A stretch of 64,000 nucleotides of DNA from Rhizophagus irregularis (taxonomy: Eukaryota): the NCBI RefSeq assembly GCF_026210795.1, contig NC_089429.1, forward strand, positions 7,440,001-7,504,000, given 5' to 3'. The notes beneath the pieces are model-generated. The model was not told the origin of the DNA. It did no database searches and worked only from the letters and a program-made list of their open reading frames with translations. The translations under genes were made by a program, and so were the position numbers. Below are positions 14,701 through 60,200 of the stretch, one piece after another. Every line of letters starts with the position of its first letter. Within the stretch, counting starts at the first letter, position 1.

Positions 14701-14944
14701 TTTGGCTTTTGTGAATTGGTATAAACCCGCTGCGACCGCAAACATCAGATTTTTTTTTTCCAGCGAAGATTCTGATGATTTTACGAATGATCCGGAACTT
14801 TGGAAAAAGGAGTTTTTTAATTCTTCAGTTGATAGTATAATTCCGGTTCATCACATATTAGGTAGATTTGTTCCAGCAAAATTTAAATACAAACGTACTG
14901 AATACTTGGCCATTTTGCCGTTAAATAGAAGATTTCACATTTAA
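11740..14944 (+). CDS. CACTA/EnSpm transposase (Transposase_21/TnpD-like) with frameshifts and a probable intron near 14028-14093
   Basis: Motifs CYCNKC, CPSCHKL, DVYDGEIW, NVDWFQPF, RFKPENMLILG, CCDIPAARKLCG, VDPMHNLFIG, GPLYSFWCFSFERMNGILG across ORFs 11632-12798, 12782-13120, 13129-14043, 14015-14944. Confidence 0.92.
12095..12260 (+). repeat. 18-bp coding tandem repeat giving an Asp-rich tract (DDGDDN)n
   Basis: gatgatggggatgataac repeated in frame within the CACTA transposase. Confidence 0.9.
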
Positions 14945-41204: not shown

Positions 41205-42719
41205 ATGATGGACAATAAAAAACATAATTTTTCTCCTCACCCTTCTCCCCTTATTAAATTTGGTCAAATTAATGTTAATGGTTTATGTTTTCCGGTTCGA
41301 CAACAACATTTACTTAATTTTTTTCTTCATTCTTCTTTTGGTGTTTTATCTTTAAATGATACCCGCCTTTCCCCTTCAAGTGCTAAATTTATTTTCAAAA
41401 ATGAACATTCCCAACATCACTTTAGGTCCTATTGGACCTGCTCATCTTCTTCTCGCCCTCATGACGGTGTTGGTATTTTGTTACATAATCCCCTTCATAA
41501 ACATGTTCAAACAATTGATCCTTGGAATGGTTGTCTTCTTAAATTGGATCTATTTTTTCATCAAACAAAAATTTCTATTATTTCTATATATTACCCCCCT
41601 TCTGGTTCTATTCATCAGCCTATTTGTAATGATCTTATTGCCAAACTTCTTTCTTGGCTCGATCATGCTCGTGCTAATAATTATTTTGTAATAATTCTCG
41701 GTGACTTCAATGTTGATGAAATCGCTCACTCTAATTATTCACCCAATCATTTTAAACTCCTTCGTTTACTTTCATCTCAGTTTTTTACTGATCATCAAGC
41801 TCATTCTTCTCTCGAGGGCCCTGATCCTACCTTTTATCATGCTAATGGATCTTCTAGACTGGATTATATCTGGTCTTCACCTGGTTTTCCTGTTCCTGGT
41901 CTTTTTTTCGCAAGTGGTTGCTTGCCCTAACCTTTTAGATCACCCTTTTACTGATCACAATGTTCTTACAACTGTTTTTGACTTTAGTTCTTGCTTGGCT
42001 ATTTTAGCTAAGTCTCGTCTTAAACAAAAAAAAGAAATGCGTACAATTTTTTCTTATACCTCTACTTCGGTTGAACAATGGAATAATTTTACTACTAAAG
42101 TGGATGATTCTCTTGGAGTATATTTGGATAGACAGTATAATTCTTATTCCGAATTTTCTTCTCTTTCTCTTGATCGTATGTGGCATGCGTTGAAAGCTGC
42201 CATACTCAGTGCTGCAATTGAAACATTACCCTTTCAAAAAGTCTCCAACATGCACCAACATTCGTACTCTCCTGAATTAACTAAACTTATTACTATTAAC
42301 AAGTTTTTAGATCGATTTTTATATCGCCTTACAACTCATCGTTTTAATCGACCTACTCAAATTTTGCAAATAACTGCTGCTTTACCTGCCCATTTAGAGA
42401 ATCTTGCATCTTTACTTCCTGATTATTCAGTTCCTATCTACTCTACAACTCCTGTATCTGAATTTAAATCGTTTTTACGATTACAAAAGAATTTAGTTTC
42501 TGCCTTTTTGTCCATTAAATTCGCCCAACATCTTACGGACTCTGTGGAATACTACACTGCTTTACGTGATGAACACTTTTCAAACTCGCTCAGCACTTTT
42601 ATTGAATCTGCCTTATCAGTAGAAAAACGTTCGATGGTTCTCGACCGCATTCTGGTTGTATTGGATTCTACTCCTACTTTATTAACGGATCCTTCGGATA
42701 TTAAACAAGCTGCTATAAC
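41205..42719 (+). pseudogene. LINE ORF2 5' part: APE endonuclease and linker
   Basis: QINVNGL, LSLNDT, HDGVGIL, IYYPP, ILGDFN, SRLDYIW, FTDH motifs. Confidence 0.92.
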
Positions 42720-43183
42720 GTCGTCGGGCTGGATGTGGGTCTCCGCTACCGCTCCACCCACCTCGGCCTCACGGCCTCGCAGTACCTCCTTCCCCCTACG
42801 GGGGATCAGGAATCCCCATATATCCGCCACAATCTGGGACAACATATGGAACAAATATATATACCAAATAACTAGAAAACAATAGAAAAGGAAGGAATAA
42901 CGGATATAATGAGAGGGTTGTCCCGGATGTGGCAGATGTGGCAGATGTTTCAGAAAAATTATGAGAGGACATCCCCCCAGAAAAAGTTTTATTTTTACCC
43001 CCCCAGATCCGCCACATCCGGAACATCTGGAACAAGTCAGGATTCTGTCTAATAATCTATTGGAAGCAGTGAGACAGCAAACCAGGTAAATTAGTAGGTA
43101 AGCCCCTAGAAGGTCTATAGAGCCAGTAAGACCAACCCCGTCCCGCCCCCGTCAGAAAAAATAAGTAATTGAACAATGGGTAT
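42720..43183 (+). repeat. Left terminal inverted repeat (464 bp)
   Basis: Reverse complement of 56834-57296; I found about two substitutions and a few single-base indels in homopolymer runs. Confidence 0.97.
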
Positions 43184-43212
43184 ACCATAAGTAACCTATA
43201 AGGACAGATAAC

Positions 43213-43572
43213 ATGTATACCCCGCACGCAGTATCAGTAATTCCCGAACTTGTAGGCCATATCCTGGAACACATTCCAAGTAGCAATTTCGGGCCACGTC
43301 TTTTAGAAGTCAGCCCAATCTGGAAAGCCGAAGCTGAACGAGTACTCTGGAAGCGGCATAAAAAAGCCGAGGAGGCATACGACAATGCAGTAGAAAAGAA
43401 GGAAAAAGCAAATGATGCTCTTGGCCAATCATTGGAGGAGGAGGGTATCCTCCGTGAACTTGAATGGAAGGCGTATCAAAAGGCTTGTAAAGAGTTAACG
43501 GACACTAGAAAAAAGCTAACTATAGTAAAAGGAGCTCTTGAGCGGTTTGGATTTCAGATATATGTAGTTTGA
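43213..43572 (+). CDS. F-box-like protein with C-terminal coiled coil
   Basis: IPELVGHILEHI...LLEVSPIWKAEAERVLW resembles the F-box consensus (PxELxxxIF..L..V.+.W). Confidence 0.6.
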   Translation: MYTPHAVSVIPELVGHILEHIPSSNFGPRLLEVSPIWKAEAERVLWKRHKKAEEAYDNAVEKKEKANDALGQSLEEEGILRELEWKAYQKACKELTDTRKKLTIVKGALERFGFQIYVV

Positions 43573-43806
43573 AAAAGGGGAAGGGAAGATTTAGAGCAGT
43601 CGTAAAGGTTCGTGGTTTATAGTTTTTTTTTACCCCTAGAAGATAACCAGATATAACCAGAGGACCGGAGGACCGGAGGACCGCAGAATCGCAGGACCAT
43701 AAGACTACAGGAGGGTAAATTGGTAGGAGTGCAGATTTTTGGAAAAATATTCGGCAATTGAAGATTAGGTAACTATAAATTAGTACTCGATTTGATAGAA
43801 CAAAAA

Positions 43807-46361
43807 ATGACTGCCCAAACTAGCACTCAAGCTCAAGTTATCCCCAAGTTCGGTGAACAGAAGAAGGCTTTTAGTATTGATGAGCTTAAACGGCTCATTA
43901 ACGCTGCAAAGAATATGAGGGATCTCAATCAAGCTAAAGGTTATCTTTGCAGTTACTTTATCCCCTGCTCCAACCCACATGGAGTCTTCATGTGGCGATC
44001 AGAAATCAAAAACCTCGAGCATATCCCCGATAAAAATATTAGTAAACTTATCCGTCCAATTACCAAAGTCTTTTACACACAATCCGAACAAGGTCCTTCA
44101 CAAAAGGTTGAATTCAATATCAACAAATGGTTTATGATCGAATATAGTACTGTATGTGTAGCTACCTGTGACCCTCAAAAATCCCATATCTTTAAACTAG
44201 GTAGCCAACTTTATCTCAATATCTTCCCAGGATTTCTCCATATCCTGCGTCCGATATCCAATTTTGAGTCTACAACCCATCAGGGCAGTTAAATTTATCT
44301 TCTCCCACATTCAGGGATATCTGGTGTTCAGGCGATTGGAATCTTACTGAGTATATCATAAAGTGGTTGGCCGGTGTGGCAGCTGGAAGGAAAATGTATT
44401 CGATTCTCTACCTGAAATCTGGACAGGGTTGGGGTAAGAGTATTATAACAGATTTCATTCAACGTAGTGTCTTAGGTACTCAACTTGTTTATAAGACCAG
44501 CGATCCTCAAACGATTCTTGGAAGTTTCAATGGGCAATTACAGGGTAAGATTCTTCTCCTCCTCGAGGAAATGCCTACAGAAAAAAGCCAGTGGAATAAT
44601 CTGTATCGATCGTTGAAGGATAAGGTAACAGGTGACATAATGGAAATCCATGAAAAATACAAGACGCCAACACATTACAAAAACTTTATATCCACTATTG
44701 TACTCACCAATGAAAATGCTCTCAGAGTGGAGAATGACGATAGGCGCACAGTGTTCTTGGATGTGTCACCATCCCGCAAGGGAGACCTTAACTACTTTAA
44801 GAAACTCAGTGATGCTATGAAATACCCAGGCGCCAGTGAGGCATTCTATGCTTACTTGAGAGCCATTGCAGACACTTACCCAGACTTCAATGGGAATCCA
44901 CCACCTATGACAACATCTAAGCAGGATCACATCATATCAACTCTCCCACCCCTATTTCAATTCATAAAGGACACTTACCTCATAGTAAAAAATCATATAA
45001 CCGACCTACCTGTTCAAGAATTTTATAGGGTATATACTTCATACTGTGAAACTCATTGCATTACACCCCTATCAAAGATAAACGCTTCTAGAATCCTATC
45101 AAATGAGTTGGGTATAAATAGCAGAAAAATACGTGTAGGTAAGGCAACACCACGAGTTTACAGCATATCCAGGGAGGACCTTTACAAAAAGTTTCTCACC
45201 AAAAAATGGATCCACGAAACAGATGAAATCAATATAGAAGGAATAGATGTAGAAACTCCTGAGAAGCCCGCATCTGATCCCAAAGCCTTGGAAAAGTTCT
45301 TGGCAAATATATATAGCATTCCTGCTAATAATTCACAAGATGTACAAGAGAAACCTGCTGAGGAAAAACCCGCTCCTGTCAAGAAAAAGCCTACTGAAGA
45401 GAAATCTGCACTTGTAGTTCCCAAAAAGACTTCACCACCAGTACCACCCAAACCCGATTCCTTGAAGGTAAAACCCGCACCTGTCATCAATGAGGATCCT
45501 ATTCCTGAAGAATCTCCAGCTCCTATAGAGTCAGATACTGATGAACCTATAGATAGCTTTTCGGACTGTTATCTATCTGATGAGGAACCTGATCAAGAAA
45601 ATGAACCGCCTGCTGAGGAACCTGCATTTAAAGCTGATGATGACTACGACATTTTAGATGACTTGCTATCTGACTCAGATTTTACAACTGTGAACCCAGC
45701 TCCTGAACAACAACCCGAGTCTCCCGCAGAATTTTCTGCATCTGTTACTAAGCCTGACCCAGAACCGGCTCCTGAAGAGCAACCTATCCCAGAACCTGAC
45801 ACAGAACTAGAAGTTGACTGGGACCCTGAACCAAAGGAAGGTACTCGAGCACACTGGGCTTGGCATGAAAGGCACCGATGGGATCGTAAGCCATGGGTCA
45901 AGAATTCAAAGGACCAGGTCTTCAATAATCTCTACAATACAGGTAAGGATTTATGGGCTAAGTACCAAGACGTGTCAGACGACTATGACTGGGAAATACT
46001 CGCATTTGAAGTAGAGGAATGTCCCACAACACGTATTGAGGACGAGTATCAGTACTACCTTAGGGAGGTAGTAGACCACTTCAGGACTGGATAGAATATA
46101 ATGGGTACTTCACCTAAAACACCTAGCCGTAAAGAACTCGCAGATCTAATAAGAGCATATAAGGAGGATCATGATGCCGAGATTATCCCTACCACCTCCG
46201 GTTATGAAACTATGAAGATGAATAAGGGTAAAGCGCGAGAAATCCCCGAGGAATGTCCAAAAACTGATATGGAACGTGAATGGGAAGCCGCCAATGGAAT
46301 TGTTGACGACTGGGATGAAGAGGATCTTGATCGTGTATGCAGCAAGATTGACTCCTTTTAA
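43807..46361 (+). CDS. D5-like superfamily 3 helicase (primase-helicase type) with winged-helix region and long Pro/Glu-rich tail; frameshifts near 44285-44320 and a break at ~46094
   Basis: Walker A ILYLKSGQGWGKS, Walker B ILLLLEEM, motif C IVLTN, arginine finger DDRR in ORF 44367-46094. Confidence 0.88.
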
Positions 46362-46444
46362 TAAGATAAGTACTTCTTAGTTATCTTATATTTTTTGTAT
46401 AAAAAACCTATATTACAACTGAACACAATTCATAAATACATTAA

Positions 46445-48574
46445 ATGGTTTATTCAGAGATTGTCCGTGCTTTACCTACAAGACCGGATATCAAAGAATT
46501 ACAGTATTCAGGTGCAAGATTTTCCAGAGGAGCAATAGCAAGACTTGGACAGCGACTCCAATCGGTATCCGACACATAAATTTCAGATTCTGCTCCCCTA
46601 TGAAAACTGGAAACCCGGTGGATGGACATCAGGAAACCAACCAGCCAGCCTCTTCTCACTCTTGGACCACTACGACGAAGCACAACTACCGGATGACGCA
46701 GACCCTGATTATTTTGAACGATTCATAATTTATGTGAGAGATGCCCCACCGGTTGCAGGGGGTTGCAACGGGGAGCTAAATGATTGCCTGTATGAATGCC
46801 TGAAATATATCTACGGCACATTCTCTAAAATGCCAAAGTCAATCGAAAAGCCCGAGTATATCAAAAAGGCATTAGGTCTCAATCGTGATGCTCCAGTTCC
46901 AGTCTCATATATGGATAAGGTTGAACAACTTGCAGGAAGCCTTGCACTTAATATTGTAGGGGATTCCACTCGAATTTCTAAGAGCAAATCTGACAGATGT
47001 GCAACACTTATTTTGTCTGAAGGCCACTACTCTCTTGCACTGAATCCCGGAAGTAAGGTTGCTTGTCTAAACCTCTTCAAAATCCTACGATTAGTTTCGT
47101 CAAAATTTTACTATAGATTTATTATAGTTTCGGCAGAGTTTCGGCAGTTTCGGCATTTATAATAAGTTTCGGCAGTTTCGCCTTTCTCCAAAGTTTCGCC
47201 AGTTTTTTAATATAACTTTAATATAGTTTCGGCAGAATTTCGCTTTTCGGCGAAACGCCATCTTGCCTAAACCCCTAGGTTTCGGCAAGCAACCTTACCC
47301 GGAAGACTCCACCCTAGCAAATTAGATAGAAAACAAAAGTCTCCCTTTGTTTATCGTGAAGATGGGGTTAATAATGTAGTAACAATATACAATGGTAAGA
47401 CAGTTAAGTCTCTTACAGTTGGACAGTTTCAGAAAGGTAAGAACTCTGATAGTTACTCCTTCATCCCTATCGAGAAGAATTGTAAAACTGGAATATATGA
47501 AACACTTGAGGAAACATACCAGAGGATCCATGAAGAGCGGGATTCCTTCCTACAGGCTACAAAGAAGTTCGGTCTAGGAATCGACTTATCTTACCACAAC
47601 TGGTCGTACAAGAGAACTGCACTCTGGCTTTTGAACGGTTTAGTGTAGGGGTTCCAGCCAATGATCCTCTTGACCCAGTCGAAGCAGAGTGGATAAGTGA
47701 TGCAATGATGGGAGGTCTTATCTGGGCAGACAATGAATGGAAGGGTTATGGAAGGCAATACGACGTGACAAGTTTATATCCAAGTATTCAGCAATCAAAT
47801 GCAAACTTTCCAATCCGACAAGGTAAGTTTCAAATACTCAAAGACTTTGTAGACCATAGAGGTTATGCCTTGTATGGATTATTTCGTGCTAGCTTCCAGG
47901 GAGCGCCCAAGGGCAAGGTAAGTGGTAATGACATTCTCTTCCGACAGAATAAGAGGGGAGTCTATACATTTATTGACTTACAACGAGCAAAGAAACTTGG
48001 ACTCGATATACAGTTAATCCAGGATGGAAAGCCAAATGCCTTGATATATGACAGAGAAGCAAGAATTCCTGGGACTGTAATATTTGGTGAGTATGTCCAC
48101 TTTCTCTTCAATATAAAGAACCAGGGTGGCGTGGCCGGTCGTGTTGCAAAGAGAGTTCTCAATACACTATGGGGAGCACTCTGCCAGAGGAAACGCAATT
48201 ACAAGACACTCACTACAGATCAAACAGATCCATTCAAGTTTCCAGAAGGCCACACACTTGACTCCATCGTACCAGTAGGATCTGACCAGTGGCGATTCCA
48301 GTTCACAAACCCAGGTAGTCCCTTCAAGGGTGAGTATCCTAGGATCGCTCCATTCTTATTAGCACATGGACGGAAGACGACTTCAGAGTTATTAGAACCA
48401 TATAAGGATAAAGTACGACGCATCCATACAGATGGATTTATTCTAGAGGAACAGCCGAGTAGTCCTACACTTATCACTTGTCCAGAAAATGCATCCAAAG
48501 CATTGAAAGCTCTCAAGTTTGAAACCGCAGGATACTGCCATGTGAAAAATGCAAACAAGGTTATCTGGACATGA
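46445..48574 (+). pseudogene. Protein-primed-type family B DNA polymerase, split by a hAT MITE and frameshifts
   Basis: MGG..., motif A QYDVTSLYPS, motif B KRVLNTLWG, motif C IHTDGF, RIAPFLLAHGR; N-terminal NDCLYECL...GHY resembles the vOTU-like segment of pPolBs. Confidence 0.88.
47054..47297. mobile_element. hAT MITE inside the polymerase gene; deletion derivative of the 18915-20616 family
   Basis: TIR taaggttgctt / aagcaacctta; 8-bp duplication cccggaag at 47046-47053 and 47298-47305; ends nearly identical to those of 18915-20616. Confidence 0.95.
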
Positions 48575-48687
48575 TTGCCAAGAATGCGGTTGGGTTTACA
48601 GTAGGTATATATATTTTTTCTTGCTTGAATGTAAAGTCAATTTGAAGATTCCTATTTATTACAAAGTACAAAAAAGTATAAGGAATC

Positions 48688-49158
48688 ATGTCAACATATA
48701 CCGAATTAGCAAGCATTATTAACAGCACTGACAGCATTAGTGATAAAGTTATTTATGATGCATCACACAATCAGTTCACCATTGTCTCTGATGAAACTGT
48801 CCTCAAGATTATCCGTGCATTAAAAGACACTATAGTAGTCGCATTAGTATCTGGGTTTAGCAAAACCAGCTACCTTGTCCAGGATCATGTGAAGTATATT
48901 AAGCGAATCCAGACGGCAAATTCTCCTGTATCATATGTGAAGTTCGTGGCCAGAAAACTCTTCCCAGATAATGCGGCATATACTGCTAAGATAGCAAAAA
49001 TCCGTGAATCATACAAGAATAAACAAGCTCTCCTAGATAAGCTTGAGGTCCTCTTCGAATTGTATTATAATGCGACTAAGGACTTATCAACCGGTCCCCC
49101 AAAGCGAGCTATTACTAAAAACGAGGCTGAGAAAACCTTAGCAGAACTTCTTGCATAA
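48688..49158 (+). CDS. Hypothetical protein (156 aa, helical-looking)
   Basis: Clean ORF with upstream atttgaaga motif and downstream T-run. Confidence 0.7.
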   Translation: MSTYTELASIINSTDSISDKVIYDASHNQFTIVSDETVLKIIRALKDTIVVALVSGFSKTSYLVQDHVKYIKRIQTANSPVSYVKFVARKLFPDNAAYTAKIAKIRESYKNKQALLDKLEVLFELYYNATKDLSTGPPKRAITKNEAEKTLAELLA

Positions 49159-49251
49159 GCGGCTCCTGTACGAATTTAGTTTATATTTTTTATCCATTTG
49201 TAATGGGCATACAGTAATTGAAGATGGCTATAGTATAAGTAACATAACATC

Positions 49252-49666
49252 ATGTTGGACCGATTACCAGTAGAAATAGTTGAACGCATTGTTGCAAAGA
49301 TCCCAGATACTGACCTTATTGCAGCGAGTAAAGTAGATAGTATGTGGTGGCAGGAGGTTCGTCAAGAAGCATATAAGAGATGGAAAAATTACGCTACTAC
49401 AATTGGGCATGTCCAAGCTCTTGGAAAGCCGTTTGAAAAAGGGAATATTGACTGGATATCATTTGAAGATGTAAACGACTTCTATAAAAGATGGATAGAC
49501 CGCCTCACCGAGGATCAGCTTTATATTATGGAGAAAATGCTTAGGAATGGGATGGTCGTGGACCCCCGAGAGGGAAACCATAGAGCATGCATTAAGTAAA
49601 CAAAGATGGGGAGGCGACCCTTGGGGACTGAACTGGGAGTGGAATGAATGGACTCAACAGGAGTAG
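49252..49666 (+). CDS. F-box protein (probable frameshift near 49570; alternative end at 49666)
   Basis: MLDRLPVEIVERIVAKIPDTDLIAASKVDSMW matches the F-box consensus. Confidence 0.8.
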
Positions 49667-49677
49667 CTTATTTATCG

Positions 49678-49880
49678 GGTATCCTCATATTTCTTGACAA
49701 GGACTGATGACCATGTAACCTTATCATCAGGTATCCTTGCATTTTTTCGACAAGGATTGATGACCATGTAACCTTATCATCAGGTATCCTTGCATTTTTT
49801 AATAAGGATTGATGACCATGTAACCTTGTCATCAGGTATCCTTGCATTTTTTAATAAGGACTGATGACCGTGTCACTTGG
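49678..49880. repeat. Four tandem 52-53-bp repeats with internal dyad symmetry
   Basis: Units start at 49678, 49730, 49783, 49835 (ggtatccttgcattttt..aaggattgatgaccatgtaaccttatcatca). Confidence 0.92.
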
Positions 49881-49934
49881 TTATTGTAAATTGAAGAAAA
49901 CTATTAGGTATGTAGACACGTACAGAAAAAAGAC

Positions 49935-50516
49935 ATGTCTTACCCTTATATAGCTAACCCTATAACTGGACGTCCAATTATTATCGGTGGAGATACCTTT
50001 AATCGAATAGTTATGGAATCCCATGATTATATTGATGGAAGGCTTGTCCGTAGACAAACTGTACCTCCACCTGAAGAGCAACCTGTATATTTAAATACAG
50101 ATACAGGACGTTATGTTCGACGTGGTACTAGAACATATTATAGACTGATTGAGAGTGACTATGAGGTAGTTGAGGATTACTACCTTGTCCATTATGAAGA
50201 AGAGGCGCTCATAGAGGAAATCATTAATGAAACACGCTATAATGAGGAAAATCTTGATGGGCAGCGGTTAACTTTCAATGATATACAACAAATCAGAACT
50301 GCTATTCAGGCTGACCAAGATGAATATGATGATTTTATCTTACAGCAAGATACGACTAACGGAACACCTTCCTCCGGTCCTTCCAGTCGTCCACGAACTT
50401 TGGAGGACCATACCCCGAGACTTGCAGAGCTTAATATTGAGTTGTGTAGGGAATGTCTCATGCCTGTAAGCCCAAGTGACTTAACGGACAAGTTGTGCAA
50501 GGACTGCTCCGAATAG
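49935..50516 (+). CDS. Protein with two NPxTGR-type repeats (2-cysteine-adaptor-like) and a C-terminal Zn ribbon
   Basis: NPITGRPIIIGGDTFNRI and NTDTGRYVRRGTRTYYRL; CREC...CKDC at the C-terminus. Confidence 0.65.
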   Translation: MSYPYIANPITGRPIIIGGDTFNRIVMESHDYIDGRLVRRQTVPPPEEQPVYLNTDTGRYVRRGTRTYYRLIESDYEVVEDYYLVHYEEEALIEEIINETRYNEENLDGQRLTFNDIQQIRTAIQADQDEYDDFILQQDTTNGTPSSGPSSRPRTLEDHTPRLAELNIELCRECLMPVSPSDLTDKLCKDCSE

Positions 50517-50561
50517 TTACTTAATTTTGAATAATTCTTTTTTACATAAAGAAAGATAGCC

Positions 50562-51122
50562 ATGTCAACATCAATCGTAATAAACCAGTGCCAAAACTGT
50601 GGAGTAGTCACTCCAAAAACAGCATATAGAGGATTATCCAGTGTATTATACAGACAGATTATAAAGAAGATTAGTGATGAGAATGACCCTCTACAAGCCT
50701 TGGGACTTACTAGGGATAAGTTAGTTCAGATCATTCGTCGGGGAAGTAATGTGGACTTTACAAAATTGTTTACACAAAAACTGGATATGAATATTATGGA
50801 TGGAGAGCCATATGAAGATATTAGGAAGTGGCTTCTCGAACAGCTTATAGCCATAGGTTATGACAGTGGAGAAATTGCTTTATATCAATTTCTAAGGGAT
50901 ACATATCCAGATGGTATTGACGAGCCTTTCACTACATTCTATGAGAACTATGTAAATCATATAAGTAATCCAATGACTAAGAACTTTGCTTCTCGTGCTT
51001 TAGGAGCAATAGGGTTGAAGGCTAAGATGTTAAGGATTGACTTTGAAGGCCGTAAAAAAAGTGCTATGATTCTTAGAGCTTCTGCAGACGAATTACTTGA
51101 TATTCTCACAAGATACTATTAA
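50562..51122 (+). CDS. Hypothetical protein, C-terminus resembling a D5-type winged helix
   Basis: FTTFYENYVNH...MTKNFASRALGAIGLKAKMLR parallels VQEFYRVYTSY...LSKINASRILSNELGINSRKIR in the helicase. Confidence 0.55.
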   Translation: MSTSIVINQCQNCGVVTPKTAYRGLSSVLYRQIIKKISDENDPLQALGLTRDKLVQIIRRGSNVDFTKLFTQKLDMNIMDGEPYEDIRKWLLEQLIAIGYDSGEIALYQFLRDTYPDGIDEPFTTFYENYVNHISNPMTKNFASRALGAIGLKAKMLRIDFEGRKKSAMILRASADELLDILTRYY

Positions 51123-52329
51123 TCCCTACTTGTAATGCTCGACGGTTCATATGGCTCTTAGAAAAGATTTGTAGAAGGACTTCAATACCTTCTATTATTT
51201 GTTTATTATCCAGAGGGTGACTAGACTTCAGGGCTTCATATCGGGAGAATAACTCCTTCACATTCTCAGTTTTCAGAGTTTCAGTCGTTGCAGTCCTACC
51301 CTGTACTTTTGCTAAGAAATCCTGAAAGTCAGCTCCTAGGGTCTTACCAGAGAGTCCATAAGCTTCCCGAAAGACATATTTAATCCAGGTATCTGTATTC
51401 TTGGCTAAGACACCAGGTACAAGTAAATGTTGACGTTCTTTAGGGGATGGAAATACCCGAGCAAATTCAATCAAGTGTCCACCTTTTTTTGCTTCAAATA
51501 CAGCTTTCTGACCATAGGGACTAAACTTGGATCGAACTGTGATTGAACTGGGTTCAGACTGAGATCGAACTGGGTTCAAACTTGGATCAAACTGAGATTG
51601 AACTGAGATCGAACTAGGATTGAACTGAGATTGCTCTGTGATCGAACTGAGACTAGTATCCCATCTTACTCGAATGGACAGTGGATCACTTTTGGACCGT
51701 CTAAGATCAAACACTACAAATTCACGTTGCAGAGTAAGATCATCAATTACTGGTGCTAATGACTCTGATTCTTTTGTATATAGGCGGATGATTCTCTTGG
51801 TATCTGTAAGGCTCCCATGACCTCCATGCAGTGAGATGTAGTTAACATTTTCTCGAATAGCCTTAGGAATGGCAAAGAATCTTTGGGCTACATAAATACA
51901 TGAAATATTTTTGTGTCGTCCATGTGTAAAGTAACCAGTGATGAGATCCTGGATTTTTTTAGGTGCATCCATCAGATCCTCGAAGATTACCACAGTAGCT
52001 TGAGTAGGGTCGAAGGAGTCAATCTCTGGAATCTCACTATGGGTTACTGCAGTGAATGGGATCTTCTCCTCTTCGAAAAAATCATGTACAACTGCCCACT
52101 TCGGCTCGTCAAGATATCTGCCAACTAAAAGTACTGCATCACATAGTACATACCGATTACCATCCTCCTTTGCTTTCTTGTCACCCATTAACAAATTAAT
52201 GATCATAGTTGTCTTACCTGAGTCTGAGCTACCTGCTACGGCTAATCGAAAGGGCCATGATGGAGCAAACTCATTGCCTTGTCTTGAGTCGGTCGTGTAC
52301 TCGTCCAAATTGTATACATAAAGATCCAT
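51106..52329 (-). CDS. A32-like (FtsK-HerA) DNA packaging ATPase
   Basis: PFRLAVAGSSDSGKTT (Walker A), VVIFEDL (Walker B), YFTHGRHKNISCIYVAQ and IPKAIREN, the A32 family signature; uninterrupted 407-aa ORF. Confidence 0.92.
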   Translation of the reverse strand: MDLYVYNLDEYTTDSRQGNEFAPSWPFRLAVAGSSDSGKTTMIINLLMGDKKAKEDGNRYVLCDAVLLVGRYLDEPKWAVVHDFFEEEKIPFTAVTHSEIPEIDSFDPTQATVVIFEDLMDAPKKIQDLITGYFTHGRHKNISCIYVAQRFFAIPKAIRENVNYISLHGGHGSLTDTKRIIRLYTKESESLAPVIDDLTLQREFVVFDLRRSKSDPLSIRVRWDTSLSSITEQSQFNPSSISVQSQFDPSLNPVRSQSEPSSITVRSKFSPYGQKAVFEAKKGGHLIEFARVFPSPKERQHLLVPGVLAKNTDTWIKYVFREAYGLSGKTLGADFQDFLAKVQGRTATTETLKTENVKELFSRYEALKSSHPLDNKQIIEGIEVLLQIFSKSHMNRRALQVGINSIL

Positions 52330-52360
52330 TTGAATTTTATTCTAACTTAGTTTAAATACT

Positions 52361-53158
52361 ATGTCGACATCAACACCAATTCCAGTTTATACTCCTTCAG
52401 AACCTACTGGACCGCCTCCTGCACACTTGGTCAATGAAAAAGATGATGATGAATTAGTTAGAATACTAAAGGCTCATGCAAATTTATTGACTACCAGGGG
52501 TCGTTTAACTGTTGATTCAGAGATACAGGAGGCAAATAATCAAATCAAACATATTATTAATATATTAATGTATCGCTGTAAAGCAAAACATGAAGAACTT
52601 GGTATTACAAAAGATTTGTTAGTTTTTGCACAAGGTAAGATAAATGCATTTGATGAAACGTTTACTAATTTAGAACGTCAATTAGTTATTATACGTGCTG
52701 CCAATGATAATTTCATAGAAGAAAACCATAACCTGCAAAGAGATTATGATACTATGGTAGAGCTTCGTCGACGGGCTATAGGTGAACGTAATCAGGCACG
52801 ACATGAACGTAATGTATTACAAGCAGATTATACTCAAGCAGTAAAGGATCGTAATGAGGCTCAAAATGCTGTGAATCGTGGTAATATCCTTTTAAATCAT
52901 TGGCGGCTGAGGGCTACTCGGACTGGAGGACAACTTGTATTGGTTAATGCGCAACTTGGACAGGTTAATGCACAGCTAGCACATGCTAATAATAGGGTGC
53001 GTTTTGGGATTCAGACATTAGGGAGACTTAGGAATAGACTTTTCCAACAGATAGCTGCTCTTAGAATTCAGGTACAATGGTTTCGAATTAGACAATTGAA
53101 CCCTCCTCCACCTCTTTTAAACAATCCACTAGAGACGATATGGCTACCACTGCGATAG
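52361..53158 (+). CDS. Coiled-coil protein, probably the N-terminal part of the Gag-like polyprotein
   Basis: Heptad-rich helix ending in a PPPP linker, overlapping the Gag ORF by 19 nt. Confidence 0.65.
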   Translation: MSTSTPIPVYTPSEPTGPPPAHLVNEKDDDELVRILKAHANLLTTRGRLTVDSEIQEANNQIKHIINILMYRCKAKHEELGITKDLLVFAQGKINAFDETFTNLERQLVIIRAANDNFIEENHNLQRDYDTMVELRRRAIGERNQARHERNVLQADYTQAVKDRNEAQNAVNRGNILLNHWRLRATRTGGQLVLVNAQLGQVNAQLAHANNRVRFGIQTLGRLRNRLFQQIAALRIQVQWFRIRQLNPPPPLLNNPLETIWLPLR

Positions 53159-54574
53159 GATTGCCGATTTTTGAGGGTAAAGCTACTGACGATGTTGATA
53201 CATTTGTTAGGCTTTATATGGGTTATCTTGATACTATTAATCTTAACCCATACGCTGCTGGAGGGCCACCAGAGTCTTGGAAAAAAGCTATGGGTATACT
53301 TAGAAGCTGCATGGCTGGTGAAGCGGCTGAATGGTTTGATCGAGAAATTACAGGAAAAAAATTGGGAACTTTCTGGTATCACTTCAAGAGGTGGAGCTAA
53401 TTTAGCTGCTTTTGTAGCATTAGTAATACCAGAAGGTGCAGGAGGACCAAATGCAGGTACCTATGTAAATGAATTGAAGAAATGCATGTTTATCCTACAG
53501 ATGGAGCTAATGCATTAGTAACTATTAGAGCAGCATTTATTCCTACCCATGATTTAATAGGTGGAGATAAAGCTTGGGGAAGAGCTGGTGCTCGTCCGAC
53601 AGATAGAGCTGCTCCAGCTACTGCAGATGCTGGTGTTGCTGCTAATAATAATCGTTCTATAGTTTTTCCAGGTATTAAACCTAACCAGGCGCTTTATTGG
53701 CTTAGAACACAATTTCCAACTATTTTAGATGAAAAGAAACGTATCCGTTTTAACAGTCTTTATCAGGAAAATGAGCCAGTCGATGCATTTTATAGAACTG
53801 TAAAGAGAGCTGGAAAATTACTAAAACTAACTGATGATCTTATTATTGACCAGTTCTTTAGAGGTCTTTTGGCTGATAATATTTTTGAAGCAGAAAGGTT
53901 TAGTAATCTTAATCCTGATGACTTGGTTAAACATCTGAGAAATTTAGAACGGAGAAGGGCTGAAATGCGCTTGGGGTTACAAGATAGAAATCGACGACTT
54001 CAAGCAGATTACAGTGATGTAACTCAACCTCCGTTAGGAAAACAGGAACCTGTCGTACTGACATCAAAGTCATCTGGGGTTACTCAAGAACAATTACAAG
54101 AGTTACTTAAGGCTCAAGCTGAGGAACTTACCAAGAATTTTCAGGTGCAATTTAAACAATTACAGGCTCGGCCAGTTCGTAATCCACCAGTCTATAGACG
54201 GCAGATTAAACCTGTTCGACCAAAACCACAGAGACGTGTTGTTCGGGATCCTCAGGATCCCTGATTGGGATGATGGTTATGTAGATCATGATGTTGGTGA
54301 TGACCCTGATGCTCCTGAGTGGACTTTGGATGATCATCAAAATGCTATTGATCTTATTATGGGATATAAACGTGGGACGTCTAAAATACTTACAAAACAA
54401 CTTCAGAAGGCTAAAGATAGACATAATGATCTGGATTTGGCCCGAGCAATGAGAAACCTCGATCTTAATGATGATGCTATGGACATTGATACTGCGAGTT
54501 TTGGTGAAAAGGTAGAATTGAGAGAAAAAGATGGTGATGTCTATATGGTTCGTGTTGGGTCAAAAAAAAAGTAG
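53140..54574 (+). CDS. Ty3/gypsy-like Gag (capsid) protein, in four ORF pieces separated by single-base frameshifts
   Basis: LPIFEGKATDDVDTFV (PxFxG...dvxxF), ILRSCMAGEAAEWF (LxGxAxxWf), WLRTQFP, major-homology-like LYQENEPVDAFYRTVKR, DQFFRGL, and DDAMDID near the end. No CCHC knuckle. Confidence 0.8.
54565..54574 (+). promoter_or_regulatory. Candidate -1 ribosomal frameshift site (A AAA AAG TAG) joining Gag to protease
   Basis: Slippery heptamer directly before the Gag stop; the -1 frame is open from here to 55311. Confidence 0.5.
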
Positions 54575-55311
54575 GTTCGAGTATCTCAAAACTTCTTAAG
54601 TCGTCCCCAAATAAGACAGCAGTTAGCTCTTCTAGTGTGCCATTGAAAGGCAAAGTAACCTCTGTTAAGATTCCTGTGAAAGTTACTGGTAGTAAGTCTA
54701 CACCTGCAAAAGCTGTTACTAAGAATGATTTATTAAGCCTGTTAAGGTCTGCAGACTTTAGGAAATTACTCCGTGAGATTCTTCAGGAGGAGTTATTGTC
54801 TGCTAGAAAAGTCACAGAGATTCCGGAGGACCTAGTTGAGGAGGAACAAGAAGAGGATATCAGGGTAGATGATCCTATGGATATTGACATAGCTCGTTTA
54901 GAGAATACTAAAGATCTTTTAGCACTGGATGGGGAGGTTAATGGAATAGCAATTCAGTGTTTAGCAGACACTTGTGCTAATGCGTCTTTTATTCAGAGAG
55001 AAGCTGCTGAGGAATTAGGGTTGGATATCGACAAGAGTATTACATATAACATATCTGGTGCTTCAGGAACAGGTAGGACATTCGGCATGGTAAAGGGAGT
55101 GACAATCAAACTTACCCCTGATTATGCTATCACTGAGGACCTTGCAGTCTTAAGTGGTTACAAGCATAGGGAAATTGGGTTAAGCCGAACGTGTCTGAAA
55201 CGTTACAATTATGATGTCCATGAATCACGTGAACATATAGCCTTTACCTGTGATGGGAAGAATGTTTTTATCCCGATAGTTCCTGATGCTAATCGAGGGG
55301 ATAAAAAATAA
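54571..55311 (+). CDS. Retropepsin-like aspartic protease (DTC variant of the DTG motif)
   Basis: LALDGEVNGIAIQCLADTCANASFIQREAAEELGL, flap ISGASG, and IGLSRTCL at the ILGxDxL position. Confidence 0.85.
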   Translation, partial: VGSSISKLLKSSPNKTAVSSSSVPLKGKVTSVKIPVKVTGSKSTPAKAVTKNDLLSLLRSADFRKLLREILQEELLSARKVTEIPEDLVEEEQEEDIRVDDPMDIDIARLENTKDLLALDGEVNGIAIQCLADTCANASFIQREAAEELGLDIDKSITYNISGASGTGRTFGMVKGVTIKLTPDYAITEDLAVLSGYKHREIGLSRTCLKRYNYDVHESREHIAFTCDGKNVFIPIVPDANRGDKK

Positions 55312-55336
55312 GACCCTTTAATTCTTCTATTTTTTT

Positions 55337-56464
55337 TTATTCCCAAAATTTGCGAATTAAGTCAGGGACATCCTCCTTCAACCGGTCAGCAGGTTCCTAA
55401 GTAGCCTCAGTGTCTGGATAGCGCTCCCACTTAACCAAATACTGGTCTTGACCTTTTCTAATGCGATGCCGAAGTATCTGCTCAGGAACAAATCTTTCAG
55501 GTTGTCCTCTTATCACAGAGTCAGGTGGAGGCTTTTCATTAATAGGAACTACTTGCAATTCCTTTCGGGTATATGCACATCTGGATACACCTAATCGACC
55601 ATGTGGTCCATTAAGGAGATATGTAGGAGGCTGTTCGGGTGAGAGTATCATTTTTTTGATTACACGAATGTTTGGGTTCCATCTTATGTCTCCTGTACGG
55701 AATTTTCCGTGAAGTTTATTACCGAGTACTGAGATAGGTTCATCTAACTTGACTCTGACACGTGCTCCTTCAGAGAGGAGATCCGTCTTTTTTGACACTT
55801 TGGGTGATCCTGTCGGAATGTCTGGGGGATTTCTCTGCCAGAGTTCATTTACTTTACTCACTATATTATGGAAATCTTCTGACCATTCCACGGATGTCAC
55901 CCCGGTTTTCAACTCCTGTGCTACCATTCGTTTAAGAAGGGGTTCTTGGATGGCTTGGATAGCTCTTTCAGCATAAGATTGCTGTTTATGCCTTCCTGGC
56001 TCTCCGAACCTTATCATTACCCCTAGGCTGTTCAGGAAAAAATCACGTACCTGGTTGTTAGTGAATTCTGATCCGGAGTCTGTCTCCAGTCTGTGTGTTG
56101 GTGGCTTAATACGATTTCTTCTGTAGATTTTGACAAACCCGTTTAAAACTCTATTTGCAGTCTTATCCTTTAGGGGTTCTGCATCAACTCTCTTTCCTGC
56201 AACTTTCACCACTACGAGAAAATAGTGGAATCCTTTGGGGTCAACTGGCATCTCTGCAAGATCTGCCTGATGTGTTGCATTTGGTTTCCATACAATTACC
56301 TTTGGGCGTTCTGTTGACTTTTCCTTTAGGGGCTTTTTGTATAGGTTGTAGTGCTCTTCACCTTTTAGAATTTGTACTGGTACTCCGGAGAGATTGTAGT
56401 ACTTATAGTAATTCTCTAAGTGTGACATATTACAACAAATTAAAGGAATGGTTTTAGACTTCAA
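55337..56464 (-). CDS. Retroviral-type (rve) DDE integrase with C-terminal chromodomain; one premature TAG at 55397-55399
   Basis: HQADLAEM, LETDSGSEF, QSYAERAIQ catalytic triad; chromodomain FVPEQILRHRIRKGQDQYLVKWERYPDTEAT*EPADRLKEDVPDLIRKFWE (stop sits at the conserved Trp). Confidence 0.93.
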
Positions 56465-56472
56465 ATCTTAAA

Positions 56473-56794
56473 ATGACACGTTTTTACTGCCTAAAGTGCA
56501 AGAAGGAAACTGAGACGGCTAGTGAAATACAAGATATGATTACAAATGGGCGTTACCGGCTGCATGGTGACTGCACAATTTGTGGTATGCATAAGAATAC
56601 TTTTACTGGAATAGACTGGGTGATCAAAGAAGAAGACTAAGGAGAAAAAGAAAGAAACCGCTGCTAAGAGACAGCAGACGGCTTACAATCGGCAATGCAA
56701 AAAACTTGGACAGAAAATCTTAGATTCTGATGACGCGTGTAAACAGTGTATTGATAAATGCCTTAAGGAGGCAAAAAAGAGGAAGACGGATTAG
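56473..56794 (+). CDS. Small Zn-ribbon protein (DUF5679-like), missing from the ORF track; first frame stops at 56640, probable frameshifted tail to 56794
   Basis: MTRFYCLKCKKETET...TNGRYRLHGDCTICGMHKNTF. Confidence 0.75.
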
Positions 56795-56833
56795 TACTGT
56801 CTTCTAAACTTATCTGAATATGCTCTATTCTCA

Positions 56834-57296
56834 ATACCCATTGTTCAATTACTTATTTTTTCTGACGGGGGCGGGATGGGGTTGGTCTTACTGGCTCTAT
56901 AGACCTTCTAGGGGCTTACCTACTAATTTACCTGGTTTGCTGTCTCACTGCTTCCAATAGATTATTAGACAGAATCCTGACTTGTTCCAGATGTTCCGGA
57001 TGTGGCGGATCTGGGGGGGTAAAAATAAAACTTTTTCTGGGGGATGTCCTCTCATAATTTTTCTGAAACATCTGCCACATCTGCCACATCCGGGACAACC
57101 CTCTCATTATATCCGTTATTCCTTCCTTTTCTATTGTTTTCTAGTTATTTGGTATATATATTTATTCCATATGTTGTCCCAGATTGTGGCGGATATATGG
57201 GGATTCCTGATCCCCCGTAGGGGGGAAGGAGGTACTGCGAGGCCGTGAGGCCGAGGTGGGTGGAGCGGTAGCGAGACCCACATCCAGCCCGACGAC
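56834..57296 (-). repeat. Right terminal inverted repeat (463 bp)
   Basis: Reverse complement of 42720-43183. Confidence 0.97.
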
Positions 57297-60200
57297 ATAA
57301 CACATTTCCAATCAATTGTTTTTCCTCCGTTGGTCTGCTATTCTTCTATCGCCTCTTTCCTTGCTCGATGGCAACATGCTTACACTCCTCTTCTTAGTGT
57401 ATCTGCTTCTATATATGATCCTGTTTTGGCACCTATTTCTTTACATGAATGGTCTGATGTAATCTCCTCCATGCCAAATAACAAAGCTTCCGGCCCTTCA
57501 AAAATTTCTTATGAAATGATAAAACATTTGTCCAATGAAGCCTTGGATTTCTCTCTTTTACTTGCCAATGCCTGTCTCTCCTGTGGTGATATTCCTGCCG
57601 ATTGGCGTGAAGCCGTGGTTTACCCTATTCCTAAGCCCCATGATTTTGATGCTCAACTCAAGAACACTCGACCTATTACCCTTCTGGAAACTGTTCGAAA
57701 TGTGTAGTTAAGGTCGTCACTAATCGTCTATCCAACATTCTTGCTAATAATAAAGTTCTTCAAGGAGGTAACTTTGCTGGTTTACCTGGTGGTTCTACAG
57801 ATGTTCCTATCAAAATGCTTGATGCAATTATTCATCAACAAAAATATGACTCTACTGATAATCAGGAACTATGGATTGTTTCTCAAGACATCTCTAAAGC
57901 TTTTAATTCTATGGATTTGAATATGCTTAAATTAGCTTTAGTTAGATTACATATCCCTGCACTTTTAGTGCAATTTATTTTAAATCTTTTTACACGACGT
58001 AATAATAAAATTATTACTTGTCATGGTGATACTGCTGCTTATCATGTACGTGTTGGTATCGATTAAGGTGAAATTATTTCCCCTTTGCTTTAGGTTATTT
58101 ATCTGGATCCCCTACTTGCTGTTTTGAATCAAGAAGCTCGAAATCCTTTTATTTTAAAATCTTCGGCTTTATTAGAATATTCTTTACTTGAATTTGAATA
58201 ACATCCTTTACCTGTTTTACATTTGACATTTATAGATGATTCTACACTTATTGCTTCTTCGAAGTCTGGCATTGAAGATCGTCTTTCTATTACTGCTAAA
58301 TTTTATACTTTGAATAATATTCAAGCTAATTCAGCAAAATATGTTCTTCTTTCATCTTTTTCCCCTTCTTCGAAGATTGTTTTTGATCTTTCACCTTCTC
58401 CTTTGATTATTGAATCTTCTCTTCCTCTTTCTTCATTAGCTCTTAATACTTCGTTTCGATTCTTAGGAGTTTGGTTTTCTTTATCTGCTTCACCTCAATT
58501 TGTACTTAAACAGGCACGCTTTATGGTTAAAGATATGGCTGCTCTTCTTGGTCCTAAAAAGTTATTGGCACAACATGTAGCCTATCTCTACAATGCTGTC
58601 CTTCTCTTGAGATTGGAATTTCGTCTACAAACCACACTTTTTTCTGAAAATACAATCCAGTCAATTGTTACGCCCATGTTCTCAGTTTTACAGAAAAAAG
58701 CTGGACTTGCTGTGACTACTCTGTTGGCTTTGTTATTTCTCAAGCTTCCTTTCTCTTTTTACCGGCTTCTTTCCTCTCATATCGCATCCTGGCAAAAGAT
58801 ATTTACTCATCCTGATTTTTGAGACTTTGTCCTTTATGCTATTTCCTACCTTCAAGGATATTTAGGTGCTGAAAGTTGCCCTGCCACTATTAACTTGGAA
58901 CCTTGGTCTCAAATTGTTTCTCTTCGGACACATACCTTGTTTAATTCATTGTTGTTTTCTTTACGATTGAATATTGCTTGATTTCTCCCTTTCTGACCTC
59001 TGAGGCGGAATTTACAATTAGCTTTGCCGCTTCAATCGATTTTACCTCATTCGATTTTTCAGACTGAAACTCTAGAAAAATTTGAACATTTTTGTACTTG
59101 CCCAGTTGGCTTCCCCTTGTGGACGTTATCTTATGAATTGGTCTGATCTTCGTTATCTTGGTATTGTTGGTCGTAAAGGACGGATTCCTTCTTGGTTTAA
59201 TTTTATTAAAAATAATTTTCTTTCTTCAGTTGATTCTTCTTTATTTTTGACTTCATATTTTATTAATTCTTCTTTTACAATAGCTTCACTTTGTTTACTA
59301 GATGATACTATTAAAGATTATCATTTTTATCCTCAATGGGCTGTTAATTTTAACTCTGCTACTCAAACTTTATCTGTTGGCCGTGTGTGTATCACTTACA
59401 GGAAACAAGACTCTGTTATTATGTCTCATTGGCTTCCTGTATCTACTTCGGCTGATGAACGATCCTATAACCCTTGTCCTGGATGTTCTTTTAATATCCC
59501 CACTTTATCCAAGAAATCTGCAATTAAACAATGCTGTAATAGCGAAAAGTGCTTTTTTAACGTAATCCTATCGGAAACTGTGGGTTATCCTACCAGAAAC
59601 ACCAAAGTATTTGCGGCTTACCTTCCCATAACTTTATCTACTTTATGGAGCTATGCTACTTCTCTGGCCCTTGTTCGCTTGACAAATCCACCCTTGTCTG
59701 CTTCTTCCGCTCTTTCTTCTTCTTTCATGGCGAGGATTGAAGATGATGTCTTACCCCTTTCTGTGCAATCTTTATATACCGATGGCTCTTTCCATCCTGC
59801 TAAGGACTCTTCACCTTCTTCTATGACCTCTGCTTGGCTTGCTCTTGATGATGACAGACTTATTCTTGAATCTTCATCTTTGCACCTGCCTTCATGTTTT
59901 CCTTCTGCTTTGCACTCTGAGATCTATGCTGTGGTATTAAGACTAAACGCTCTTTCCCGTAGCTCTTCAATCTCTATTTATACCGATTGTAGTCAATTGA
60001 TTTTATTATGGACACGCTTTGTTGATGCTCCTTTTTCACTAAAGTTACTTCGTGAACCTAATCATCTTCTTTGGCTTTCTATTCGACACCTTATTTTGGA
60101 TCATAATCTTAAAATTGATTTGATTAAAGTCCCTGCTCATGGTGATGACATCTATAATATACAAGCGGATTCTCTGGCAAAAGATGCTCATTCGTCTTTG

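Follow-up and report, generated by a model that had tools for sequence, protein, structure and literature searches.

Within a 64,000-nt stretch of Rhizophagus irregularis DNA (contig NC_089429.1, positions 7,440,001 to 7,504,000; hereafter the window), we have analysed a transposable element in which a packaging-type ATPase stands beside a Gag-retropepsin module. Judged by its sequence, the element is of the fungal Polinton/Maverick type, as a polymerase, an integrase, inverted repeats with a target-site duplication and an FtsK-like ATPase are all present. The comparison with relatives identifies the conserved union of the packaging ATPase with the Gag-retropepsin module as the real finding; the close spacing of these genes is ordinary for the family. 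All coordinates are positions within the window (Table 1), and L-numbers denote metagenome loci that carry relatives.

Conservation of the ATPase-Gag arrangement

The arrangement was followed through an alignment of 55 ATPases, comprising that of the window and 54 of 120 listed matches, which were picked to avoid intron-containing gene models. This alignment led to 51 metagenome loci. Several of these are near-identical, hence the counts are not independent, but at least six lineages are represented. A Gag gene was present in 20 of the 51 loci and in all 14 that extend more than 1,400 bases upstream. Further downstream the order is also kept, with the protease found in seven loci and the integrase in five. 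In these divergent relatives, the Gag and protease frames are intact. Thus, the view of the preliminary description that the Gag block belongs to the element as an integral component is supported, because the gene order is kept in relatives whose ATPases are 46-88% identical to that of the window. Its reasoning from tight packing is not supported, as close spacing is general among the genes of these elements. Nor is the layout confined to the window copy.

Named homologues of the ATPase, the coiled-coil protein and Gag all come from R. irregularis, R. clarus and R. diaphanus, and the remainder are metagenome proteins, which points to a Rhizophagus-like mycorrhizal fungus as the host. In one R. 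irregularis assembly, consecutive accessions (CAB4405764, CAB4405765) belong to an ATPase and a protein of the Gag cluster.

Gag, the predicted recoding site and the protease

Gag has a predicted retroviral/Ty3 capsid fold. The structure model was built from residues 1-275 of the intact Gag of L018 with a 34-sequence alignment, and reached a predicted local distance difference test score (pLDDT) of 83.5. When it was compared with 48,161 chains, rows 1-36 were all retroviral, Ty3, Copia or domesticated capsid domains (PEG10, HERV-K, Arc, EIAV, HIV, MLV, RSV, Copia, PNMA2 and foamy virus). The best match, to the C-terminal domain, had Z 9.8 and a root-mean-square deviation (rmsd) of 3.5 over 84 aligned residues, a value that, like the other Gag Z values, is modest for helical folds. 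Matches to Copia, MLV, Arc and PNMA2 span both domains (Z 5.4-8.2), that to Copia with Z 8.2, 155 aligned residues and rmsd 9.1, and the match to the C-terminal domain is the strongest. Atlas supports the capsid fold (0.93), and so do a profile search, with the PEG10 capsid as its best hit (E 0.004), and Pfam Retrotrans_gag, which was above cut-off in one of five Gag proteins. Foldseek alone gave no match below E 0.001. Caulimovirus coat proteins were among the weak fold matches.

The N-terminal capsid domain of the model holds an insertion of about 100 amino acids (residues ~70-172) that is rich in Gly, Ala and Asn and confidently modelled. The insertion found no match in the structural search; from the model it is a candidate surface spike. 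Among 27 metagenome matches examined, 18 Gag proteins have a complete C-terminus. None of these 18 contains a CCHC zinc knuckle, and every one has KKK or KKR within its last nine residues.

A run of A residues lies just 5' of the Gag stop codon, with the -1 frame open into the protease, in all nine junctions. The run is exactly A9 in six of six lineages, and these account for six of the 11 runs of at least eight A on that strand. No stimulatory RNA structure was found behind the A9 run in six sequences (z -1.3 to +1.9 against base-shuffled controls). The A9 run and the open -1 frame suggest -1 recoding, by which more Gag than Gag-protease would be made, as one expects of a particle. The catalytic D-[TS] motif of the protease is intact in all eight copies. 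Three frame changes interrupt the Gag gene of the window copy (near 53360, 53475 and 54256), with decay and assembly error as possible causes.

The packaging-type ATPase

The ATPase reading frame is uninterrupted, as the preliminary description had it (51106-52329, 407 amino acids, Pox_A32 E 3e-9). The protein consists of an ATPase domain (~1-225), a linker encoded with 11-bp tandem repeats, and an extra helical domain of about 140 amino acids. This extra domain is conserved (residues ~262-407, window 51109-51540), and an Atlas search with it returned no family. A sequence search with the ATPase against PDB gave no match. The structure model had a pLDDT of 73.8, and its best Foldseek match was B204, the packaging ATPase of Sulfolobus turreted icosahedral virus (STIV), with E 1.4e-6. 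Among the 55 aligned proteins, the Walker A motif is kept in 54, a GRH motif in 54 and a Gln in 53; the last two we take to be arginine-finger and sensor motifs.

Codon comparisons show the ATPase to be under purifying selection. The median ratio of nonsynonymous to synonymous substitution (dN/dS, Nei-Gojobori) was 0.20, with a range of 0.11-0.44, and the extra C-terminal domain is also constrained. These values come from 98 of 528 pairs among 33 sequences (dS 0.05-1.2, at least 150 codons), which are not independent; L004, L036, L040 and 16 loci without the ATPase start were excluded. Relaxed selection on the ATPase of Gag-containing elements was thus not seen, in a set that holds no Gag-less elements for comparison.

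Spacing of the genes

The preliminary description placed the ATPase head-to-head with a Gag polyprotein across 31 bp. The distance is correct, between an ATG at 52329 on the minus strand and one at 52361 on the plus strand, and the start codons do diverge. The gene across the gap, however, is a separate one for a coiled-coil protein of 265 amino acids, and the Gag ATG lies at 53140 in another frame. A divergent, ATG-led open reading frame (ORF) lies 31-78 bp from the ATPase start in all 35 of the 51 loci that include this start. The median spacing is 49 bp with the window included, and it is 40 bp in L004.

Such spacing is found elsewhere in these elements. The integrase and zinc-finger genes are likewise head-to-head, with 44, 32, 50 and 32 bp between them in the four copies compared. 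Across ten relatives, the median gap is 79 bp between neighbours on the same strand (n=37, plus two of 65) and 0 bp between convergent ones (n=13). Seven of nine divergent gaps in these relatives are 32-76 bp; the other two, of 350 and 1041 bp, arise from the ORF filter, which discarded a broken or overlapping ORF. The 31-bp gap is therefore not very special, and it is the conservation of order that goes beyond chance, not the tightness. The spacers are 70-87% AT, contain TATA-like words, some of them palindromic, and cannot be aligned between lineages. We believe that the 31-bp gap reflects general compactness and probably also a promoter that the ATPase and coiled-coil genes share.

At the other end of the module, the protease was described as converging on the integrase with a 25-bp gap containing a T-run. 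This is so only if a premature stop in the integrase is read through (55312-55336). As encoded, the integrase ORF already ends at 55397, which leaves 85 bp to the protease stop. The corresponding gaps are 25 bp in L016 and 26 bp in L009. In L016, L009, L034 and L018, the gap between the converging ends combines an A-run at one side with a T-run at the other, and resembles a two-way terminator or polyadenylation signal.

The coiled-coil gene

The coiled-coil protein varies in length from about 160 to 440 amino acids among relatives. Its conserved part is the C-terminus, which is basic, then Pro-rich, and then ends in W-L; the C-terminal half has a net charge of +11. Of 22 junctions, 16 show an overlap of 13-16 bases between the coiled-coil gene and the Gag ATG, five have 27-76 bases between the two, and in one the coiled-coil gene is broken. 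The W-hydrophobic motif persists where the overlap is absent.

We considered whether the coiled-coil protein and Gag form a single polyprotein as a family trait, and rejected this. The Gag frame has a stop codon no more than 30 codons 5' of its ATG in all 21 junctions evaluated, and the five junctions with a gap instead of an overlap also count against fusion. A slippery heptamer able to join the two frames occurs, among 21 junctions, solely in the window and L001. This heptamer, TTTAAAC (window 53116-53122), is in frame near the end of the coiled-coil gene and would slip into the open Gag frame; the matching peptide PLNN is common in the coiled-coil clade of the window. NCBI gene models fuse the two frames through introns that differ between models, and no splice joints across them were seen in RNA reads, for which coverage is sparse.

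Modules that were not found

Between the inverted repeats we found no ORF similar to a jelly-roll capsid, in agreement with the preliminary description. In the complete element, and likewise in L016, L033 and L040, no unassigned ORF larger than about 200 amino acids is left. No Pfam or PHROG capsid family was matched among the ORFs scanned. In scans limited to sequence families, the ORFs of 119, 156, 186 and 193 amino acids gave no family match that would indicate a penton, and no scanned ORF had a Pfam match to an adenovirus-like cysteine protease. A search of IMG/VR gave no relatives for the ATPase and Gag, and for the integrase just two matches of 34 amino acids.

There is no reverse transcriptase or RNase H inside the inverted repeats, nor between protease and integrase in five relatives, and no long terminal direct repeats surround the Gag-protease block. 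The lack of a zinc knuckle and of a reverse transcriptase makes retrotransposon-type RNA packaging unlikely.

A model for the Gag-ATPase module

We propose a model of capsid-module replacement, in which a Polinton carries a packaging-type ATPase, a coiled-coil protein, Gag and a retropepsin, and the ATPase fills a Gag particle with the linear DNA of the element. We give this model about an even chance. The step of it that is grounded in the data, as read from the sequences, is that the gene set and order are conserved, that the frames of relatives are intact and that the ATPase is under purifying selection. The element would excise and be copied by its own polymerase and helicase. Recoding at A9, by slippage of either the ribosome or RNA polymerase, would produce Gag in excess over Gag-protease, and the retropepsin would trim Gag, in the role held by the adenovirus-like protease in ordinary Polintons. 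The ATPase may then dock on the shell, for which the coiled-coil protein is a likelier link than direct contact, and pump in about 14 kb of DNA. The particle could bring the DNA, together with the integrase, into a further nucleus or mycelium. If the shell is Ty3-sized, which is an assumption, 14.3 kb of DNA would by computation fill about 0.31 of it, dense enough for a motor to be plausible; the interior of the Ty3 shell is about 5 x 10^4 nm3 (PMC6525542).

A wider form of this proposal is that the element represents a chimeric virus lineage of mycorrhizal fungi, with the replication and integration genes of a Polinton, in which the jelly-roll capsid and cysteine protease were replaced by Gag and retropepsin. 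Its motor would dock via the coiled-coil protein and drive double-stranded DNA into a retrovirus-like shell, and this shell would bear the 100-residue surface domain. We hold this with some reserve, at a little less than even chances. Ordinary Polintons carry a major capsid protein, a penton, a cysteine protease and an ATPase (PMC4028283). According to the same source, nine Polintons without a capsid are also without ATPase and protease, so that these two are usually lost along with the capsid. Here the ATPase is retained, next to a protein with a predicted capsid fold and a maturation-type protease of different origin.

Several points weigh against a Gag particle filled by the ATPase. To our knowledge, no portal exists for Gag shells. 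The Walker B motif is usually DD or DE, and it reads ED in all 55 ATPases. A wide structural search places VirB4, DndH and HerA level with or above B204 (Z 13.6-12.4), and therefore the fold does not fix a packaging role for the ATPase. Three other capsid-less Polintons keep the ATPase, one of them a Glomus element (PMC4028283 Table S1), and hence ATPase retention alone does not require a shell. Co-regulation and an A32 motor working with a Gag shell, both suggested in the preliminary description, are predictions from the genes, as are the particle itself and the binding of ATPase to Gag.

The behaviour of Gag is a further such point. The window and L001 are 97% identical in the ATPase N-terminus and 94% in the coiled-coil N-terminus, but 47% in Gag, and their DNA identity falls from 87-96% to 62-75% at the Gag start. 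The window Gag is nearest to that of L018, and the ATPase of L018 is 60% identical to that of the window. The correlation between Gag and ATPase identities is weak (Spearman 0.17, 171 non-independent pairs), and divergence is faster in Gag (median identity 44%) than in the ATPase (64%). The Gag and ATPase trees disagree; in an approximately unbiased (AU) test of this conflict, holding the two Gags together was not rejected (p 0.095). These sequence patterns indicate that Gag modules are exchanged at the start codon, that the ATPase and coiled-coil genes stay together and that there is no fixed ATPase-Gag pairing. Because Gag is exchanged independently of the ATPase, a tightly co-evolving direct contact between the two is argued against, and an adaptor is argued for. 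Every locus long enough carries a Gag despite this exchange.

Expression data also give the model no help. In four public RNA runs from a species that carries this sequence, reads over the ATPase, the coiled-coil gene and most of Gag were near zero (depth 0-3, with large gaps). Per run, 224-272 of about 11 million reads fell on the element, and about 70% of these continue into unlike sequence. Coverage was too sparse to call a start site or an indel at the A-run. The element family looks nearly silent in these four runs.

Four other explanations have to be weighed against motor-driven filling. The strongest rival, possible but doubtful at roughly one chance in four, is that Gag does enclose the DNA of the element, but by co-assembly around DNA in condensed form, with the basic coiled-coil protein as one possible scaffold. 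The ATPase would then have another task in DNA translocation, such as the resolution or segregation of replicated copies. The FtsK/HerA fold is shared with non-packaging translocases, the extra 140-amino-acid domain has no assigned family, the coiled-coil C-terminal half is basic and Gag is exchanged independently of the ATPase, all of which suit co-assembly. Yet the closest Foldseek matches of the ATPase are viral packaging ATPases and Pfam gives Pox_A32, and about 0.3 is a high fill for DNA enclosed passively, again if the shell is Ty3-sized. It is less likely still that Gag-protease does a non-packaging job, as an Arc/PEG10-like carrier of RNA or protein or as a restriction factor against competing retrotransposons, and that it lies beside the ATPase merely by compactness. 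The domesticated capsids PEG10, Arc and PNMA2 and the Ty1 restriction factor are indeed among the top structural matches, tight spacing is general in these elements, and the faster divergence of Gag would fit such a job. Particle maturation, however, would account for the conserved recoding signal and the intact protease; the block adjoins the ATPase in every locus of sufficient length, and the conserved ATPase would be left without a shell.

We consider it improbable that a helper virus, or a second Polinton family of the fungus, provides jelly-roll capsids in trans for the ATPase to package the element into, with Gag as an accessory. Non-autonomous Polintons do exist (PMC4028283 Table S1), but the Glomus Polintons tabulated there in 2014 are without both capsid proteins, no relatives of the ATPase and Gag turned up in IMG/VR, and a helper would presumably bring its own ATPase. 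That the Gag-protease block is the remnant of a long terminal repeat (LTR) retrotransposon inserted by chance is hardly credible. Gag is broken in the window copy and the window is full of nested elements, as such a remnant would suggest, but the same position and intact frames in divergent relatives refute it, and the block has no long direct repeats, no reverse transcriptase and an integrase on the opposite strand.

Other features of the element

The element is flanked by remnants of a long interspersed nuclear element (LINE), with its endonuclease on the left and its RNase H on the right. The terminal inverted repeats are near-identical (460 of 462 aligned bases match). The helicase is one ORF of 760-780 amino acids in L033 and L040, and the polymerase one ORF of ~625 amino acids in L016, L033 and L040; PF03175 was above cut-off in the window and in L040. 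The integrase gave Pfam matches to rve (E 6e-9) and chromo (E 1e-8).

Inside the polymerase gene of the window lies an inserted 245-bp element with 22-bp inverted ends (47053-47298). RNA reads pile up there and continue into many different flanks, so that it is read as a multi-copy miniature inverted-repeat transposable element (MITE). In L020 (2154-5732), downstream of the ATPase, an ORF of 1,176 amino acids with an endonuclease VII domain replaces the usual small genes and the 625-amino-acid polymerase. F-box genes recur at shifting positions (window 49252-49599; L033, L034 and L047), and this recurrence suggests that the elements control ubiquitin ligases of the host. Between the F-box gene and the 193-amino-acid gene, a 52-53-bp repeat is present in about four tandem copies (49663-49904). 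Elsewhere in the window, remnants of other DNA transposons occur at 6762-7844, 13057-14941 and 31187-31717 (DDE_3-like, Transposase_21-like and C17orf113-type zinc finger).

Table 1. Features of the Polinton/Maverick-type element, as positions within the window (aa, amino acids)
Feature	Position	Strand	Size	Remarks
Whole element	42720..57296		14,577 bp	Sits in a decayed LINE
Target-site duplication	left copy 42715..42719; right copy 57297-57301	+ (left copy)	5 bp	Single insertion examined
Left terminal inverted repeat	42720..43183		464 bp	
Right terminal inverted repeat	56834..57296		463 bp	
D5-like superfamily 3 helicase (DUF5906)	43807..46094	+		Frame change near 44270-44290 splits the gene
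Protein-primed-type family B DNA polymerase	46539..48574 (start approximate)	+		PF03175; broken by an inverted-repeat element and frame changes
Small gene	48688-49158	+	156 aa	Kept in relatives
F-box gene	49252-49599	+	115 aa	Kept in relatives; the one small gene with an assigned function
Small gene	49935-50516	+	193 aa	Kept in relatives
Small gene	50562-51122	+	186 aa	Kept in relatives
A32/FtsK-HerA packaging-type ATPase	51106..52329	-	407 aa	
Spacer between divergent start codons	52330..52360		31 bp	84% AT; presumed shared promoter region
Coiled-coil gene, separate	52361..53158	+	265 aa	Candidate matrix or adaptor
Gag	53140..54574	+		Predicted two-domain capsid fold and variable tail; three frame breaks in the window copy
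A9 run just 5' of the Gag stop	54562..54570	+		Predicted site of -1 recoding into the protease frame
Trans-frame region and retropepsin (aspartic protease)	54562..55311	+		-1 frame; Asp_protease_2 E 9e-9
Gap between converging protease and integrase ends	55312..55336		25 bp	Contains a T-run
rve integrase with chromodomain	55337..56428	-		Premature stop 55397-55399 in the window copy
Small zinc-finger gene (DUF5679)	56473..56640	+		Head-to-head with the integrase, 44 bp between

Relation to known elements and viruses

With canonical Polintons/Mavericks (Polintoviricetes) the element has in common a family B polymerase, an rve-chromo integrase, long inverted repeats, an FtsK-type ATPase and a length of about 15 kb. 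It differs from them in that no double jelly-roll capsid was found and that a retropepsin takes the place of the adenovirus-like protease. It also has an extra D5-like helicase, a short polymerase (~625 amino acids), a 5-bp duplication and GTC termini; canonical Polintons usually have a 6-bp duplication and AG termini. With Ty3/Gypsy elements (Metaviridae) and the capsids derived from them (PEG10, Arc), it shares the two-domain capsid fold, a retropepsin behind a -1 overlap and a PMD-like motif before the protease. Unlike Ty3/Gypsy, it has no LTRs, reverse transcriptase, RNase H or zinc knuckle, carries the 100-amino-acid insertion in the capsid N-terminal domain, and has its integrase on the opposite strand. 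Caulimoviruses and foamy viruses hold double-stranded DNA inside a retro-type capsid, where it is made by reverse transcription within the shell. We know of no caulimovirus or foamy virus that uses a packaging ATPase or DNA polymerase B.

The Glomus/Rhizophagus Polintons P_Gi1.1, P_Gi1.2 and Polinton-1_GI come from the same host group and are listed without major capsid, penton and cysteine protease; P_Gi1.2 is listed with an ATPase, as is found in the window element (PMC4028283 Table S1). By this description, these elements and that of the window are probably of the same family. In the passages and table consulted, Gag and retropepsin go unmentioned and the Glomus Polintons are treated as having lost their capsid.

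A 'Rhizophagus glomeromycete fungus MELD virus' exists (10.1101/2022.05.25.493380; NCBI taxid 2707321), and it probably stems from Starrett et al. 2021 (PMC8502044). In the main text of Starrett et al. (PMC8502044; preprint 10.1101/697771), 'Gag' occurs once, in a figure legend with a Gag-like label. From the wording of this legend, it is very likely that it describes an element of the same family as ours. The sections of the paper examined give no conservation, selection, recoding site or mechanism for the Gag-like genes. Compared with the labels of the MELD virus, the window element has no zinc-knuckle nucleocapsid (NC), and its 'matrix' is a separate gene. It is therefore probable that the Gag-like genes have already been labelled once in print, without analysis. 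A 2026 preprint reports A32-like ATPases in Glomus and Rhizophagus, with Gag unmentioned in the portion seen (10.64898/2026.06.19.733378), and the portions consulted of PMC11952901, PMC11075540, PMC8647823, PMC11161782, PMC5294986 and PMC6431247 do not describe a Gag-ATPase module. We found no analysis of a Gag-bearing Polinton in the literature searched, a scope that leaves aside subscription papers, Repbase and the original descriptions of 2006-2007. In the same literature, we found no virus demonstrated to pair a packaging motor with a Gag shell.

Significance

Packaging ATPases of the A32 class have been thought to be paired with jelly-roll capsids, and Gag shells to enclose RNA genomes that reverse transcription copies. 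If the module described here does build a particle filled by the ATPase, the virion modules of two virus realms would be joined in one particle, and a DNA virus would be able to swap its whole shell and maturation protease across realms. It would also explain why Glomus Polintons seem to be capsid-less yet retain the ATPase. Last, Mavericks have been reported to be expanded specifically in the Glomerales (PMC11952901), and such a particle would provide a vehicle for the spread of Mavericks.

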